A stretch of 50,274 nucleotides of DNA from Atribacterota bacterium (GCA_038203565.1 JBBRDV010000005.1:1-50274); one strand, 5' to 3'; counted from the first letter of the stretch, positions 2,899 to 45,822 are shown. Notes: generated by a model from the sequence alone, not told the origin. A program made the numbers and translations.

Positions 2899-2936
2899 AT
2901 AAAAAATATCACCCTCTTTTTCCACGAAGAAGTGAT
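2899..2936 (-). terminator. Riboswitch expression-platform terminator
   Basis: Minus strand ATCACTTCTT-CGTGGAAA-AAGAGGGTGAT followed by ATTTTTTATT, between aptamer and btuF. Confidence 0.65.
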
Positions 2937-2944
2937 TAATTCGT

Positions 2945-3110
2945 CTAAGCAGGCAGGTCTCCTGGCTTAAGGGGTCAGCCTAATTGCTGTGCCTTCCCAT
3001 CTATCACTCTATAAAAAGTGTTAAACAGTGGCTTAGTACAGCTTTCGTAACCCATTACAGTAGCGGGTCTGCGGTGGATTTTCACCACTCTTCCCTTAAC
3101 CTGCTTATTT
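2945..3110 (-). ncRNA. Cobalamin (AdoCbl) riboswitch
   Basis: Minus strand TAAGCAGGTTAAGGGAA..GGTGAAAATCC..CCCGCTACTGTA..GCCACTG..GGGAAGG..AGCCAGGAGACCTGCCTGCTTA. B12 box and P1 (TAAGCAGG/CCTGCTTA) present; upstream of btuFCD. Confidence 0.95.
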
Positions 3111-3137
3111 TTAAATATTTAATTTTCAATCAAAAAA

Positions 3138-3166
3138 ATTATAATACATTAACCGAAAAATTACAA
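3138..3166 (-). promoter_or_regulatory. Sigma70-type promoter for the riboswitch-btuFCD transcript
   Basis: TTGTAA-17 nt-TATAAT on the minus strand just upstream of the aptamer. Confidence 0.65.
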
Positions 3167-3193
3167 TATATTTTGCAGTTATTGTTTCTATTG

Positions 3194-3325: not shown

Positions 3326-3844
3326 ATGATAAAAGGTTTAATCCAAGTATATACCGGTGATGGAAAGGGTAAAACTACCGCCGCCTTAGGTTTAGCACTC
3401 AGGGCAGCAGGCAGAAACATGAAAGTATTAATAGTTCAGTTTATGAAAAAATGGGATTATGGAGAACTTCATTCAGTTAAATTAATTCCCAATATTACTT
3501 TAGAAACCTTTGGCACCAAAGAATTTATCTATAAAGGCAAAGCAAAAAAGATAGATTATGAGGAGACGGAAAAAGCTTTTTCTTTTGGTGCAGACGGGAT
3601 GCAAAGCGGGAATTATGATATAGTAATATTTGATGAACTCAATATGGCTCTCTATTATGAATTGTTAGATTTAAAAGAAGTTATTCAAAAGATAAAAGCG
3701 AAACCCGATAATATAGAAGTAGTTATTACCGGAAGAAGAGCGCCTGAAGAGATAATAGAGATTGCTGATTTAGTTACCGAGATGAAAGAAATTAAGCATC
3801 CTTATCAAAAAGGGATAGAAGCGAGAAGAGGAATTGAATATTAA
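3326..3844 (+). CDS. cobO: Cob(I)alamin adenosyltransferase (CobO/BtuR/CobA type)
   Basis: YTGDGKGKTTAALG, VQFMK, VITGR, and C-terminal KHP...RGIEY. Confidence 0.95.
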   Translation: MIKGLIQVYTGDGKGKTTAALGLALRAAGRNMKVLIVQFMKKWDYGELHSVKLIPNITLETFGTKEFIYKGKAKKIDYEETEKAFSFGADGMQSGNYDIVIFDELNMALYYELLDLKEVIQKIKAKPDNIEVVITGRRAPEEIIEIADLVTEMKEIKHPYQKGIEARRGIEY

Positions 3845-4658
3845 AAAAGAAAAATTAAATAATTTACGAAAAATATTATCTGAAATGGGAAGTATTTTGA
3901 TTGCTTATTCGGGAGGTGTGGACAGCACTTTTTTATTAAAAGTAGCCCGAGAAGAGTTAAGGGACAGAGTTATTGCGGTAACTGTAAAGTCAGAAATTCA
4001 TCATCTTAGTGAAATAGCAATTGCTAAGAAAATGGCGCAAAAATTTAAAGTGAAGCATCTATTTATTGATATTGATATCTTGTCGAATAAAGAATTTGTT
4101 AATAATCACAAAGGGCGATGTTATATATGCAAAAAAGAAATATTTAGCCGAATAAGTGAAATGGCGAAAGAACTTAATTTGAATTTTGTAGCAGATGGCT
4201 CGAACTATGATGACCTTAGCGATTATCGCCCGGGGATGAAGGCGGTTAGAGAATTAAAGATAAGGAGCCCCCTGCAAGAGGCTATGCTTACCAAAGACGA
4301 CATTCGTCTTCTTTCTAAAGAAATGGATTTACCCACCTGGAACAAGCCTTCTAATTCTTGTCTGGCTACCAGGGTTCCTTATGGAGATGAGATAACTTTA
4401 GAAAAGTTGAAGAGGATAGAACAGGCAGAGAGTTTTATTCATAATTTGGGGATTGAACAGGTAAGAGTAAGGTATTATAATAAGCTGGCAAAGATCGAAG
4501 TAGAGGGAAAAGATCTTTTTTTATTCATGGAAGAAGATTTAAGGGAAAAGATAATTAATAAATTAAAAAAATTGGGATTTATCAATGTTACTCTTGATTT
4601 GCAAGGATACCGAAACGGGAGTATGAATGAAGAATTAAAGCAGAAAGTTGGGGATTGA
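3834..4658 (+). CDS. larE: ATP-dependent sulfur transferase LarE (NPN cofactor synthesis)
   Basis: PP-loop SGGVDS, RCYICK, DYRPG, SCLATR, VRVR; adjacent to larB and larC. Confidence 0.92.
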   Translation: MNIKKEKLNNLRKILSEMGSILIAYSGGVDSTFLLKVAREELRDRVIAVTVKSEIHHLSEIAIAKKMAQKFKVKHLFIDIDILSNKEFVNNHKGRCYICKKEIFSRISEMAKELNLNFVADGSNYDDLSDYRPGMKAVRELKIRSPLQEAMLTKDDIRLLSKEMDLPTWNKPSNSCLATRVPYGDEITLEKLKRIEQAESFIHNLGIEQVRVRYYNKLAKIEVEGKDLFLFMEEDLREKIINKLKKLGFINVTLDLQGYRNGSMNEELKQKVGD

Positions 4659-4661
4659 ATC

Positions 4662-5420
4662 ATGGAAAAAGAAGAGATTAAGAGAATATTACAACAATTT
4701 AAATCCGGCCAAATGGAACTAAAAGAAGTGTTAGAGAAGTTAAAGCATTTTCCTTATGATGACCTGGGTTTTGCCAAAATAGATAACCAGAGACAATTAA
4801 GAAAGGGTTTCCCAGAAGTTATTTTTTGTCAGGGTAAAACCTTGGAGCAGATAACTAAAATTGCAAAACGAATAAAAGAAACCGAAGGTAAAATTGTTGC
4901 TACCCGGGCTACTCCCGAAGTATATCAGGAGATTAAAAAGATTATTCCGGAAGTAACTTACTTTAAAGAGGCCAGAATTGTAGCAGTAGAAGAAAAGAAG
5001 AAAGTGTGCTCTAAATTTATTTTAGTGGTTAGCGGCGGTACTGCCGATATTCCTGTAGCCGAAGAAGCCGCAGTTATTGCTGAGTTGATGGGTAATAGAG
5101 TGGAACGCCTTTACGATGTTGGAGTAGCAGGCCTCCATCGACTTTTAACCAATTCAAAAAAATTATTAGCCGCCAATGTTCTAATTGTGGTAGCGGGAAT
5201 GGAGGGGGCTCTCCCCAGCGTAGTAGGAGGATTGGTAGACAAACCTGTAATTGCCGTCCCCACCAGCGTAGGTTACGGGGCGAATTTTAATGGGCTGTCT
5301 GCCCTATTAACCATGCTTAACAGTTGTGCCCCCGGTTTAGCGGTAGTAAATATAGATAACGGTTTTGGAGCCGGCTATATGGCTAGTTTAATTAATCAGT
5401 TAAATGAGGTGAAGGAATGA
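4662..5420 (+). CDS. larB: NaAD carboxylase/hydrolase LarB
   Basis: GTADIPVAEEA, DVGVAGLHRL, AGMEGAL, PTSVGYG, MLNSC, VNIDNGFGA. Confidence 0.95.
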   Translation: MEKEEIKRILQQFKSGQMELKEVLEKLKHFPYDDLGFAKIDNQRQLRKGFPEVIFCQGKTLEQITKIAKRIKETEGKIVATRATPEVYQEIKKIIPEVTYFKEARIVAVEEKKKVCSKFILVVSGGTADIPVAEEAAVIAELMGNRVERLYDVGVAGLHRLLTNSKKLLAANVLIVVAGMEGALPSVVGGLVDKPVIAVPTSVGYGANFNGLSALLTMLNSCAPGLAVVNIDNGFGAGYMASLINQLNEVKE

Positions 5421-41959: not shown

Positions 41960-42382
41960 AATAAAGCCGCGAGATATATTATTTTATGGGAAGAGGATAT
42001 CTAATTGAACTATATTAGCAAATAAGATTACCATAAATCCAGCAGTACTGAAGTTATTACCACTGATAAAGAAAATTAGTAGATAATGTTTTAATTAAAC
42101 TTGGAAATTCATCACAAAAAAGATACAAAAAAATGTTAGTTTTTATTTGAAATTTAAAATATATTTTGTTAGTATAATATCCGATTTTTATATCTATAAT
42201 TAGTTAAATCAAAAAATCAAAAAATAATATATTAAAATTATCTAAAATTATTTAAAAAGTTTACAAATTAATGTCTAAAATTGCTTGGTTTAGGGAATAT
42301 AATAAATAAGAGATTTTAATATCCTAATTTATGAAAGAAATGATATTATTTCCTGGAGGTGAATAATATAGAAAATATCCCG

Positions 42383-42487
42383 AAAAGTTGAGAAAGGTAA
42401 ACTGACCGAAAGGTCAGGACGCAAAGTCCTGGGTCTAAGGTACTAAAATAATTAATTAGTACTAAGATTACTCGACTGCCAGCTTTT
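42383..42487 (+). ncRNA. c-di-GMP-I (GEMM-I) riboswitch, aptamer 1 of the plus-strand tandem
   Basis: GGTAAA-CTGACC GAAA GGTCAG-GACGCAAAG-TCCTGGGTCTAAG...GACTGCC; P1 AAGTTG/CAGCTT followed by a U-tract. Confidence 0.88.
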
Positions 42488-42534
42488 TTCGTTTAAATTG
42501 AGAAAATACATAATTTAGAGTATTTTTTAAGTAA

Positions 42535-42621
42535 ATGAAAAAGGCAAACTACCCAAAAGGGTAGGACGCAAAGTCATGGGTTTAAAGCACTTATAAAAGT
42601 GCCATGATCGCCAGACTGCCA
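42535..42621 (+). ncRNA. c-di-GMP-I riboswitch, aptamer 2 of the plus-strand tandem
   Basis: GGCAAA-CTACCC AAAA GGGTAG-GACGCAAAG-TCATGGG...GCAC..GTGC..ATGATCGCCAGACTGCC; ends ~37 nt before the ATG. Confidence 0.85.
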
Positions 42622-42657
42622 AAAAAAGTTAAAATTTTTTCGCAGGAGGCGATTTAA

Positions 42658-44232
42658 ATGAAATTAAGTTTTAAAATTTTTTTACCTATGATATTAATTT
42701 CCGCATTGTTAATCTTACTTACTGGATGCTTTGGAACCGTTCCAGATGATAGTCCAGGCTATACTTCAGGAACGATTACTGGTATTATTGCTGCACCCTG
42801 CTGCTCTACTTCTGCTGAGCCGGTACCTGATCCTTGTTGTATTGCTCCCGAGTATTGGTGTTATTATTGTGAAAATACTTGGAGTCTTCAAGATAATATT
42901 AAAGTAATCCTTACTTATGGAGAAGATGAAAAAGCTACCGTTTTTACCAATGAAGATGGTGAATACACCTTTACTAATGTTGCTCCAGGTAAGAATTATG
43001 TCATTACTGCTTTATGTCCAGATTATACGGATGACCGACCTCTAGTCAAGGATGTAGCTCTTGAAGTAGTCGAAGGGGAAACTTATGATGCCAAGATTAC
43101 CGATTGTGTATCTACTGCTCTTGGATTAGTGGTAGATTATCTGGTCACTTACACTGAACTAGGTCCAGAGGATATTGTGTTGGATGGGGTTATAGCTGGT
43201 AATCCTAATTTCTATGGTTTTCCAGAGTTTAAAAAACTTGTATTGAGAATTTGTGAAATTTCCCCAGAATGTGTAAATCTGTTCGAAGATGATAAGGTTC
43301 CGGATTATTTATGTCGGGCAGCACAAGAGATAGGACGAAAAGTCCTTCCTGAACTTGATCTGGGATGTGTGGCAGGGTTTACTCCTACAGGACCAGGTCC
43401 AGGTCCTACACCTATAACGATTACCTATACCTTAACTATGGCAGTAAGTCCGGCTGGAGCAGGTACAACCGTTCCATCAATAGGAGCTTATTCTGGTTAT
43501 GCCAAAGATTTTGAAGAAAATATCAGTGCTAGTGCAAATGCAGGCTATCATTTTGTAAACTGGACTGTAAGCACTGGAGCCGCTGCTCTTGCTCCTAATT
43601 CAGCTTCTACCACAGTGACCATGGATGCTAATAAGACGGTTACCGCTAACTTTGAAGCAGATGTGCCGATTACCTATACCTTAACTATGGCAGTAAATCC
43701 GACTGAGGGAGGTACAACCGTTCCATTAATAGGACTTCATTCCGGTTATGCCCAAGATTTTGTAGAGAATATCAGTGCTAGTGCAAATGCAGGCTATCAT
43801 TTTGTAAACTGGACTGTAAGCACTGGAGCCGCTGCTCTTGCTCCTAATTCAGCTTCTACCACAGTGGTCGTGGATACTGATAAGACGGTTACCGCTAACT
43901 TTGAAGCAGATGTATGTAATAATCATGCACCTGTAATAGGTAATCTTCCTCCAGCTACAACACAAAAGGTAAATAAGGGGCATACATATACTTACGATGT
44001 AAATGCTACCGATCCTGATGCGGGGGATACCTTAACTTATAGTTTGACTACTAAACCTAATGGTATGACAATTAACTCCTCTACTGGAGTAATTACTTGG
44101 ACTAACGCACAATGTGGAGATCGTTGTTACAAGCTTTGTGATATAAATGTAACCGTAAGAGTAACTGATAATTCAAGCTGTGGACCTTTGTATGATGAAG
44201 AAAGCTTTATAGTAGAAGTTTGGCAGCCATAA
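42658..44232 (+). CDS. Cys-rich surface lipoprotein: carboxypeptidase-regulatory-like beta domain, Pro/Thr/Gly linker, two InlB-B/Flg_new-like repeats, C-terminal Ig/cadherin-like (He_PIG) domain
   Basis: Lipobox LTGC; TNEDGEYTFTNV.PG; TPTGPGPGPTP; two YTLTMAV.P..G...GYHFVNW...KTVTANF units; N.AP...YTYDVNATDPD.GDTLTYSL...P.GMTI...TGVITW. Confidence 0.85.
   Translation: MKLSFKIFLPMILISALLILLTGCFGTVPDDSPGYTSGTITGIIAAPCCSTSAEPVPDPCCIAPEYWCYYCENTWSLQDNIKVILTYGEDEKATVFTNEDGEYTFTNVAPGKNYVITALCPDYTDDRPLVKDVALEVVEGETYDAKITDCVSTALGLVVDYLVTYTELGPEDIVLDGVIAGNPNFYGFPEFKKLVLRICEISPECVNLFEDDKVPDYLCRAAQEIGRKVLPELDLGCVAGFTPTGPGPGPTPITITYTLTMAVSPAGAGTTVPSIGAYSGYAKDFEENISASANAGYHFVNWTVSTGAAALAPNSASTTVTMDANKTVTANFEADVPITYTLTMAVNPTEGGTTVPLIGLHSGYAQDFVENISASANAGYHFVNWTVSTGAAALAPNSASTTVVVDTDKTVTANFEADVCNNHAPVIGNLPPATTQKVNKGHTYTYDVNATDPDAGDTLTYSLTTKPNGMTINSSTGVITWTNAQCGDRCYKLCDINVTVRVTDNSSCGPLYDEESFIVEVWQP
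43418..43913 (+). repeat. Intragenic tandem duplication, period 249 bp (83 aa)
   Basis: Copies at 43418-43664 and 43667-43913; the 99-bp core 43519-43617 is identical in both. Confidence 0.95.
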
Positions 44233-44291
44233 ATTACCGTAAATGCTGTTAATTTTTGCAAAGTATTGATTTAGTATTGTATTTAACTCGC

Positions 44292-44339
44292 AATAAAGGG
44301 TGTTTCCTATTTTTAAAATGGTAGGAAACACCCTTTATT
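44292..44339. terminator. Bidirectional intrinsic terminator between convergent units
   Basis: Perfect 18-bp inverted repeat AATAAAGGGTGTTTCCTA / TAGGAAACACCCTTTATT. Confidence 0.85.
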
Positions 44340-44460
44340 CTTATATTGTAGTAATTGATGGGTGTTGGTATTTCAGTTTTTAGATTACAAGTAAAGATAT
44401 TTTTTACCGCCAAAGTATCGTTTAACTGTCCAACTAGCAAACCGGCTAACGCAAACTATC

Positions 44461-44664
44461 CTATTTTTTTAACTTTTCTATATACTCAACTGGTACGATT
44501 TTTTTGGCAAAGCGGACCGCTTTTTTTTCAGTGGAAAAAGTTCTGTCTGCTACCTTTATCGGTGAAGATAGAGCGTATCCCTTGTAAGTATTGTGTCCAT
44601 ACTCTACAACATATTTATCTTGATGAGAAGCTATTTTACAATAATCGTATTTTATTTTCATCAT
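44461..44664 (-). CDS. Small basic hypothetical protein (66-67 aa)
   Basis: Strong SD AAGGGAGG before ATGATG; co-oriented directly downstream of the C39 gene. Confidence 0.7.
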   Translation of the reverse strand: MMKIKYDYCKIASHQDKYVVEYGHNTYKGYALSSPIKVADRTFSTEKKAVRFAKKIVPVEYIEKLKK

Positions 44665-44733
44665 TTATCCTCCCTTTCAATAAGAATTTAGAATATATTT
44701 CATTTTTCAAATAATAATTACTATTGGTTTATT

Positions 44734-45381
44734 CTAAGAATTATCTGTATTGTCAATAAGCTCGGCATTTAAGGTGTCAACTTCTACCGGCGAAAGGACG
44801 ATAATTTTACACTTATCAGGACTGCTATTGAAATTAAGAGCTAAAAAATCAGCATAAGATATTTTGTAATCTTTTCCGGCGGTCGGATCGTTAGTAATTA
44901 TTTCCTGGGTTTCATCATCAAATCCGATAATCACCCGGGCATGTGAATAGGGCAAGGTAAGACTATAATTTTGTATGGCAATGATCGGGATATCTTCTTT
45001 CAATAAAACCTTTATTTCCTCAATGGTTTTGGATTGATATTTGGTCTCAAATCCCAAACTCTTGGCGTAACTAATAAATTTAAATACCGAACTATCGCCA
45101 TTGGTGATCACTTTACTGGCTATCTCGGATTGGCTAATATTTTTTCCGAAATATTTAAAAGCCATCGCACCTGATGCGGGTAAACACCAATTGTATCCGG
45201 CATATTTTTCATAAGGTACATCGAGATAAACAGAATCTGTTTCCTCGACCTTACTTAAAGCTTCATCTAAATCAAGCTGAAGTTCAGGTGTAACCACACC
45301 ACTACAAGATGTCAGAAAAAGAGAAACAATCAACATTAAGAAAAGTGCTATGGTTATTTTGCCTATTGCTTTTGCTTTCAT
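44734..45381 (-). CDS. C39-like (papain-fold) cysteine peptidase lipoprotein
   Basis: Lipobox LTSC, LDVPY, NWC.PAS..M...YFG..ISQ.EIA, H.RVI.G.D, NDP (Cys-His-Asp triad); ATG 45381 has SD GGAAGG. Confidence 0.88.
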   Translation of the reverse strand: MKAKAIGKITIALFLMLIVSLFLTSCSGVVTPELQLDLDEALSKVEETDSVYLDVPYEKYAGYNWCLPASGAMAFKYFGKNISQSEIASKVITNGDSSVFKFISYAKSLGFETKYQSKTIEEIKVLLKEDIPIIAIQNYSLTLPYSHARVIIGFDDETQEIITNDPTAGKDYKISYADFLALNFNSSPDKCKIIVLSPVEVDTLNAELIDNTDNS

Positions 45382-45486
45382 ATTATTTCCTTCCATTCCC
45401 TCTGTTTTTTTACAGAGTCTTAAATTTTTTAAATTTAAGTTGTGAAGGCATTTTTATCAAAGCCTGGGATTTTTTCAAACGAAAAA

Positions 45487-45577
45487 AAGTCGGTAGCCTG
45501 GCTGCCTTAGCACTTTTGGTGCCTTAGACCCATTGCTTTGCGCCCTACCCTTTCGGGTAGTTTGCCTTTATCAACTT
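45487..45577 (-). ncRNA. c-di-GMP-I riboswitch, proximal aptamer of the minus-strand tandem
   Basis: AAGTTG..GGCAAA-CTACCC GAAA GGGTAG-GGCGCAAAG-CAATGGGTCTAAG GCAC CAAAA GTGC TAAGGCAGCCAGGCTACCGACTT + U-tract. Confidence 0.92.
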
Positions 45578-45610
45578 GGTGAATTTCTTATTCTTTTTTC
45601 AAACGAAAAA

Positions 45611-45701
45611 AAGTCGGTAGCTTGGCTGCCTTAGCACTTTTGGTGCCTTAGACCCATTGCTTTGCGCCTCAACCTTTCGATTGATTTGCCTTTATCAACT
45701 T
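45611..45701 (-). ncRNA. c-di-GMP-I riboswitch, distal aptamer of the minus-strand tandem
   Basis: Direct repeat (period 124 bp) of the proximal aptamer, with covarying P2 TCAATC GAAA GGTTGA. Confidence 0.92.
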
Positions 45702-45822
45702 GGTTAGCTGCTAAAATATTTATTCTCTTTTCAAATTTCTCTTTTCTACTTATTATATTCCCTAAAAAAAGAAATTTCAGACATCAATTTGTAAATATTT
45801 TATATTTTTTATATTTTTCTAG

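Follow-up and report, generated by a model that had tools for sequence, protein, structure and literature searches.

Tandem class I c-di-GMP riboswitches predicted to control an adhesin-like lipoprotein and a C39-like cysteine peptidase in opposite directions in an Atribacterota genome

Introduction

In Pseudomonas, the LapA/LapG/LapD system places a cysteine protease and a large repeat adhesin under the governance of cyclic di-GMP (c-di-GMP); the protease, LapG, is transglutaminase-like and is held by a protein receptor, LapD. In Clostridioides difficile, c-di-GMP riboswitches turn the protease ZmpI OFF and its substrates ON (PMC6200980). Here we describe a locus in a 50,274-nucleotide (nt) stretch of DNA from an Atribacterota bacterium (GCA_038203565.1 JBBRDV010000005.1:1-50274; this whole stretch is called the window, and the genome is 99% complete), in which two convergent units, one for an adhesin-like lipoprotein and one for a C39-like cysteine peptidase, are each preceded by a pair of class I c-di-GMP (c-di-GMP-I) aptamers. 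The genome belongs to a class that we take to be JS1 Atribacterota, bacteria abundant in anoxic sediments. In C. difficile, ZmpI (PPEP-1, CD2830) and the surface proteins CD2831 and CD3246 are encoded by neighboring genes, with the protease OFF and the adhesins ON, and the same signs are predicted here. On the strength of folding and covariation, we lean toward the view that the Atribacterota locus is an opposite-sign, c-di-GMP-controlled attach/release module acting at the level of translation.

The tandem c-di-GMP-I riboswitch Bc3-5 of Bacillus thuringiensis is reportedly of a pseudo-cooperative type. Doublets of c-di-GMP-I aptamers are common, 347 having been counted, and those of Bacillota show enrichment ahead of putative cysteine proteases of transglutaminase-like type (COG1305); in the parts of the surveys cited here, c-di-GMP doublets are filed as complete riboswitches with one platform each, and the tables list dual aptamers with a single platform for glycine and guanidine-II only (PMC9481103, PMC12452182). 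Near-identical c-di-GMP-I aptamers can be ON or OFF (PMC9262584), and polarity must therefore be read from the platform. Our literature search found no paper on riboswitches of Atribacteria or Atribacterota, none combining a c-di-GMP riboswitch with a C39 peptidase and an adhesin, and none on this gene pair. Judged by title or abstract opening, it also found no dual-aptamer translational c-di-GMP switch; the supplement of PMC9481103, which possibly lists these doublets, lay outside that search.

Results

Open reading frame (ORF) calls and Pfam searches gave two convergent units. On the plus strand, a pair of aptamers leads to a 524-amino-acid (aa) adhesin-like lipoprotein (42658..44232); on the minus strand, a second pair leads to a 215-aa C39-like cysteine peptidase lipoprotein (44734..45381, PF13529) and then to a 67-aa basic protein, the second gene of that unit (44461..44664, ORF call). 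A search with RF01051 recovered all four c-di-GMP-I aptamers named in the initial annotation of this DNA, each at full length (model positions 1-87) and at 61-84 bits against a gathering score of 35. They are the distal (42386..42483, 61.1 bits) and proximal (42533..42623, 81.1 bits) aptamers of the lipoprotein leader on the plus strand, and the proximal (45489..45576, 83.9 bits) and distal (45613..45700, 82.5 bits) aptamers of the peptidase leader on the minus strand. All four keep the ligand-contact bases G20, A47, and C92 (numbered after the Vc2 aptamer), and the 3' CC is present. Position 20 we take to be the ligand-specificity position; A20 is typical of variants of these aptamers that bind cyclic GMP-AMP (cGAMP). 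As each of the 52 aptamers examined at genome loci has G20, specificity for cGAMP was rejected; two metagenome distal peptidase aptamers carry A at this position (L123 1747 and L161 1413). By sequence, the aptamers are members of the class I c-di-GMP riboswitches, and are predicted to bind the ligand and to control expression. A run of 6-7 U follows the P1 stem of both peptidase aptamers and of the distal lipoprotein aptamer; the proximal lipoprotein aptamer lacks one.

The two peptidase-leader aptamers are 93% identical to each other and repeat with a 124-nt period. In many relatives, the two aptamers of one peptidase leader have a common P2 stem that differs between genomes (L080, L088, L092, and others), and the P2 types exchange order between genomes, which suggests conversion between the tandem copies. 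A lone lipoprotein aptamer in G020 (L065, 5014) resembles a distal 5' half fused to a proximal 3' half, and none was found upstream of the peptidase in that genome.

Behind the proximal peptidase aptamer, a 33-nt strand (45437..45469, minus strand; segments S1 45458-45469 and S2 45437-45450), delimited by complementarity, folding, and covariation, is conserved amid an A+T-rich spacer in genome and metagenome leaders. By sequence, this switch strand could pair with either aptamer, in its 5' half, or with the peptidase ribosome site and first codons. In equilibrium folding, a bound aptamer raised the cost of opening the ribosome site in 17 of 17 peptidase leaders (18 were tried in single-state folding and 17 computed), and shuffling of the spacer abolished the effect in six of eight leaders (0/30 shuffles as extreme). 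Three leaders were left out before the counts: G034 from folding, G024b from the leader set, and G019 from the duplex means. The relatives fall into two families, the genome studied here being in family 1. Between the switch strand and the first codons of ten family-2 leaders, four pairs were changed on both sides, with 0 of 500 shuffles scoring as high, and 85% of positions were paired in the real register as against 17-58% in slid controls. Across both families (16 leaders), the switch strand covaried with two partners, the aptamer (91.5% paired) and the first codons (83.5%). We infer that binding of ligand to an aptamer very probably sets the switch strand free to lock the peptidase ribosome site and first codons. 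Rho is present in the genome and could carry the effect of the peptidase leader on to the 67-aa gene.

Between the two peptidase aptamers, we found neither a terminator hairpin nor a ribosome site, and a single switch strand lies downstream of both. In this genome, the cost of opening the peptidase ribosome site was 7.1 kcal/mol with neither aptamer bound, 6.8 with the proximal, 7.9 with the distal, and 10.7 with both; the cost rises most with both bound because any free aptamer takes the switch strand. The both-bound state exceeded the free state in 12 of 13 tandem peptidase leaders from genomes. It was also the most locked state in all 27 metagenome tandem leaders computed (28 were tried; L098, L167, and L130 were left out), for which the mean cost was 5.3 free, 5.7 with the proximal aptamer only, 7.8 with the distal only, and 13.0 with both. 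In some family-2 genomes, the proximal peptidase aptamer alone gives most of the effect. The distal peptidase aptamer is thus predicted, from these models, to be a second sink for the switch strand.

The lipoprotein leader folded in the opposite sense. In its minimum-energy fold, the 3' strand of the empty proximal aptamer (GATCGCC 42606-42612 and CTGC 42616-42619, plus strand) pairs with the ribosome-site region (GCAG, AGGAGG, and GGCGATT, 42642..42654, plus strand), and this predicted anti-ribosome-site pairing is kept in 8 genome and 12 metagenome leaders. The sign in folding was ON in seven of seven leaders, and then in seven of the eight family-1 tandem leaders. With the distal aptamer alone bound, opening cost 13.4 kcal/mol instead of 14.0, a small predicted effect. 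In family 2, the lipoprotein leaders contain a single aptamer, a long helix that extends to the ribosome site, and a terminator hairpin within the leader; they folded as ON in seven of eight cases when P1 was allowed to extend, and the hairpin, which is strong, was avoided somewhat more easily with the aptamer free. The empty proximal aptamer of the lipoprotein leader probably pairs with its own ribosome site and is released by ligand. The initial annotation had guessed at opposite polarities, adhesin ON and protease OFF; the second half of this guess drew strong support from folding and covariation, but the first half only weaker support, from folding and conserved pairing.

Upstream of the first lipoprotein aptamer lies a Shine-Dalgarno-like element, GGAGGTGA (42355..42362, plus strand), without a conserved start codon. 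It or a near match occurs in this place in eight of eight family-1 and eight of eight family-2 leaders, and no conserved upstream peptide was seen at it among the lipoprotein leaders examined. Its use as a CsrA site or as a road-block to RNase J was rejected, as neither CsrA nor RNase J was found in the genome.

The peptidase matched PF13529 (Peptidase_C39_2) at 65 bits against a cut-off of 24 (E 1.5e-17), and Pfam returned only C39_2, C70, and C39; the score for the PA2778 family cysteine peptidase (NF033920), 30.6 bits, was below its cut-off of 150. It has a lipobox Cys26 and the triad Cys66-His147-Asp165, which does not vary among the 17 relatives aligned. Both the orthologues and the ribosome site place its start most likely at 45381 (MKAKAIG, 215 aa) rather than at 45396, where it had been called at first. 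Its nearest solved relatives are 3ERV (E 4e-4) and the isopeptidase PeiR (8Z4H, E 3e-3), with which it has the Cys-His-Asp triad in common; the peptidase here differs from them in being lipid-anchored and partnered by the 67-aa gene. The subfamily is a stand-alone lipoprotein and was found at E<=1e-15 in 26 of 52 genomes of the class and in 0 of 34 others. The 67-aa protein has no signal peptide and no Pfam family, and its Atlas clusters are without a name. Its structure was modeled confidently as a strand-rich fold with one helix, for which the best Z was 5.0 and no Foldseek match was obtained at E<=0.001. The same 21 genomes, out of 41, contain the peptidase and the 67-aa gene, and the two stand together in 58 of 59 metagenome loci.

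The lipoprotein has a lipobox LTGC (Cys24), 18 Cys, two InlB-B repeats, and a He_PIG immunoglobulin-like (Ig) domain. A conserved N-region (about residues 24-245) is followed by a Pro/Gly/Thr spacer, the InlB-B repeats, and He_PIG. The N-region was modeled as a transthyretin/CnaB-like sandwich plus helices; its best match (Z 6.9, root-mean-square deviation 2.2 over 80 aligned residues) was to transthyretin/CnaB-like domains over model residues 11-131, with the helical part barely covered. Among the 120 listed of 144 homologues, the C-terminal half is variable, with PKD, InlB-B, Ig, and cadherin domains. These domains and the variable C-terminal half make it likely that the lipoprotein is a polymorphic adhesin. 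The suggestion that the linker is the region of cleavage was not borne out, because its sequence varies freely: where its boundary could be parsed (97 of 120 homologues), it consists of poly-Pro, PG, GE, or poly-Asp and lacks a common motif. As no conserved or processing motif was present, the linker was rejected as a cleavage site. Prediction of a complex between the lipoprotein N-region and the peptidase gave a weak pass (median 0.47 from 0.47, 0.70, and 0.00; best control 0.00), with a contact agreement between runs of at least 0% and a predicted local distance difference test (pLDDT) score of at least 76 for the partner. Of the reference pairs, 116 of 157 solved and 2 of 215 mismatched ones got as far as the mark used; those that did so at scores of 0.60 or less were just 18 solved pairs and both mismatches.

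The metagenome loci that we compared came from the best 80 of 212 matches and are close kin; L092 is the same genome as G044. Linkage of the two genes across relatives held within family 1 but not in family 2. The convergent layout of family 1 is complete in three genomes (this genome included), absent in two, and untestable in one, and in four further genomes it is suggested by surface-protein tails cut at contig ends; among the metagenome loci of family 1 with 3 kb downstream, 11 of 14 have the four-aptamer convergent layout. In family 2, an aptamer lies upstream of the peptidase in 12 of 12 loci and upstream of the lipoprotein in eight of the nine loci examined. Among 52 genomes, both genes occur in 18, the peptidase only in 8, the lipoprotein only in 7, and neither in 19; for the 23 high-quality genomes, the corresponding numbers are 12, 3, 0, and 8.

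Both units are preceded by a promoter motif of SigB type, GTCTAA-N14-GGGAAT for the lipoprotein unit (42272..42299, plus strand) and GTCTGA-N14-GGGAAT for the peptidase unit (45756..45783, minus strand, by motif search), the two forming an inverted repeat. A relaxed form of the pattern gave ten matches in the genome, seven of them just before aptamers and one before a pilin, compared with 0-3 in 10 shuffles. A strict form turned up in most of the class (45 of 52 genomes) and in 1 of 34 others (a reversed control gave 3 matches), and 42 of the 43 metagenome peptidase loci having 520 nt upstream contained the motif. The SigB consensus is given as GTTTAA-N15(+/-2)-GGGTAT for Bacillus and as KTTTW-N12-17-GGGWAW for Bacillales (PMC9847131). 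Relative to the B. subtilis SigB consensus, the Atribacterota motif GTCTAA-N13/14-GGGAAT has one change per box, with fitting shape and spacing. A sigma-28 (FliA) promoter was rejected, as the spacing is that expected for SigB and the genome yielded no flagellin; of the genome's seven sigma-70 matches, none was read as FliA, and only the two SigB-like ones were scored. These two sigma genes, for which the best family is TIGR02980 (174 and 187 bits, below the cut-off of 234), are SigB/F/G-like and lie inside a type IV pilus cluster between the pilC-like and prepilin peptidase genes (G000:C45, L201). Their subfamily was found in 37 of 52 genomes of the class and in 2 of 34 others. With moderate confidence, we propose that a SigB/F-like sigma factor from the pilus cluster transcribes both units and the pilins. 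Bacillus SigB serves general stress genes, whereas the regulon here would comprise pilins and riboswitch-led surface genes.

The genome contains 11 RF01051 matches at eight loci, so the four aptamers of the window belong to a wider regulon, and at least one match was present in 40 of 41 genomes searched. For turnover of c-di-GMP, the genome has 4 GGDEF and 8 HD_5 genes, and no EAL domains were found in it. Folding gave no clear sign for the polarity of five other riboswitch loci of the genome, where start codons are uncertain. Several features of this regulon were noted in passing. The pilus region has two type IV pilin genes (G000:C45, L201, 2534-4051 and 8160-9604), with the promoter motif before each; two c-di-GMP aptamers belong to the second, and repeat-like inserts interrupt their P3. 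In three family-2 genomes (G030:C167, G048:C308, and G036:C13), another SigB-like paralogue stands immediately 3' of the promoter motif, and in G029:C11 one lies just downstream of an RF01051 match, which together with the three motif-led cases suggests possible feedback. In G000:C23, a riboswitch (3088-3174) leads a 78-aa membrane or secreted ORF, divergent from a gene for a GGDEF diguanylate cyclase (3673-5214).

The common bidirectional terminator that had been proposed for the two units is present as a predicted two-way intrinsic terminator at 44292..44339 (both strands), an 18-bp perfect inverted repeat with T runs, flanked on both sides by TTTATT. The locus had also been called an islet; its G+C content is 0.366, compared with 0.365 for the window, and the flanking genes are conserved within the family. 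The lack of contrast in G+C and the conserved flanks ruled out a horizontally acquired islet. Elsewhere in the window there is a cobalamin riboswitch (2935-3119, minus strand, 93.9 bits). Public RNA sequencing runs had shares below 0.1 and matched contigs of relatives only, and were uninformative on strand, ends, and level.

Discussion

In the module that we favor, high c-di-GMP would likely allow the adhesin to be made and silence the cysteine peptidase, leading likely to attachment; at low c-di-GMP, the peptidase would be made with the adhesin off, leading likely to release. The SigB-like sigma of the pilus cluster would transcribe both units. Locking of the peptidase would be strongest with both of its aptamers bound, because either free aptamer could capture the switch strand. 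A weaker proposal is that the peptidase cuts envelope proteins and so loosens attachment; it is possible, but doubtful, that the protein cut is this very lipoprotein, which would then be shed directly. The fullest version, a lineage-wide circuit of class I aptamers only, with a pilus sigma, a decoy distal aptamer, and a peptidase that stays on until both aptamers are filled and sheds the adhesin at low c-di-GMP, is unlikely.

A number of observations weigh against the attach/release module. The evidence on polarity is throughout equilibrium folding with a crude bound state. The peptidase effect in this genome is small, 3.5 kcal/mol, and was matched by 8 of 30 shuffles, and the cross-family covariation probably reflects one or two events. 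A strict criterion that both aptamers be needed held for 5 of the 27 metagenome tandem leaders. For the lipoprotein, the effect was 1-7 kcal/mol and was equalled by 1-8 of 30 shuffles, and among the 8 genome and 12 metagenome leaders there was no compensatory change in the pairing. In family 2, a cruder bound state gave a zero or opposite sign in six of eight lipoprotein leaders, and no convincing antiterminator was found in those with the terminator hairpin. The free variation of the linker belongs here too, as do several features of the genes themselves, which bear also on the first of the alternatives.

That alternative holds that the opposite signs are real but that the two genes are unrelated members of one c-di-GMP/SigB-like regulon, the peptidase being an envelope or cell-wall hydrolase and the adjacency simply inherited. 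We consider it unlikely, and it draws on much of the evidence. The peptidase and lipoprotein genes were adjacent in none of the 12 family-2 loci (two of these stop close to or at the end of a contig). In family 1, two genomes (G024 and G044) lack the lipoprotein at the site, and so do 3 of 14 metagenome loci. One of the two nearest structures, PeiR, is a cell-wall endoisopeptidase, and 3ERV is the other; the linker is variable; and seven of the eight riboswitch loci of the genome have the same promoter motif. In another class of Atribacterota, distant C39-like lipoproteins are each led by one aptamer and a ribosome-site hairpin (L202 in G061 and L204 in G059), and the lipoprotein N-domain was found in none of five genomes searched, these two among them, which favors a peptidase role older than the lipoprotein partner. 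Co-occurrence may mirror loss of the whole regulon, because the sigma, too, is often absent where neither gene is present, and the kin compared are not independent. Set against this alternative are the absence of any high-quality genome (0/23) having the lipoprotein without the peptidase, the persistence of the four-aptamer layout in 11 of the 14 metagenome loci despite repeated replacement of the C-terminal half of the lipoprotein, and the weak pass of the complex prediction.

A second alternative, which we regard as improbable, is that the polarity has been misread: the U runs would mark ligand-dependent terminators or pauses for Rho entry, and the two units would have the same sign, or the lipoprotein would be OFF. 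The U runs behind three of the four aptamers, the presence of Rho, the family-2 terminator hairpin that is easier to avoid with a free aptamer, and the small margin of the lipoprotein ON sign are all consistent with it. In family 1, however, there is no conserved terminator hairpin ahead of the U runs. Moreover, the peptidase switch strand is placed 3' of the U run and, given its covariation with the start codons, can be accounted for only by transcription that reads through; and the proximal lipoprotein aptamer, which has no U run, carries the conserved complement of the ribosome-site region. A third alternative, in which the lipoprotein is matured by the peptidase, or retains it through the N-region, with no shedding and with the riboswitches setting the timing, would suit two lipoproteins that may share a compartment, an N-region conserved while the rest varies, and the weak complex pass with that region, but it is very improbable given that the opposite predicted polarities would separate the two proteins in time and that the linker has no conserved processing motif.

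If the attach/release module is real, it would provide a definite lifestyle switch for a bacterial class that is mostly uncultured, with promoter, candidate sigma, RNA switches, and effector genes all testable outside the organism. Were the fullest version to hold, it would be a third independent protease-adhesin switch beside those of LapG and PPEP-1, and would contain a c-di-GMP tandem architecture absent from the cited parts of the surveys (PMC9481103, PMC12452182). The peptidase leader is a c-di-GMP doublet seemingly on one translational platform, with first codons that covary with the switch strand, and this point is independent of the question of the peptidase substrate.

On the side of the RNA, dual aptamers of the glycine type place two homologous aptamers on a single platform; for the peptidase leader, equilibrium folding predicts competition for one strand, with no cooperative binding or aptamer-aptamer contact predicted. 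Tandems of the Bc3-5 type have a separate expression platform for every aptamer, unlike the peptidase pair, though a role for the U runs is possible. On the side of the proteins, Pseudomonas LapG is transglutaminase-like and restrained by LapD, whereas here the enzyme is a PF13529 peptidase and RNA would control its synthesis. The ZmpI system combines class I OFF with class II ON switches; the Atribacterota locus has class I only, in pairs, on predicted translational platforms. ZmpI is a zinc metalloprotease with sortase-anchored substrates, in contrast to the papain-fold, C39-like lipoprotein and the lipid-anchored modular protein found here, and its cleavage of adhesins has been shown, whereas cleavage of the lipoprotein at the present locus is hypothetical. 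The Atribacterota units are convergent, in a genome with Omp85 genes, unlike the ZmpI arrangement. The locus is predicted to work like the ZmpI/adhesin pair but is not a member of that system, having another protease, another anchor, and class I aptamers only.

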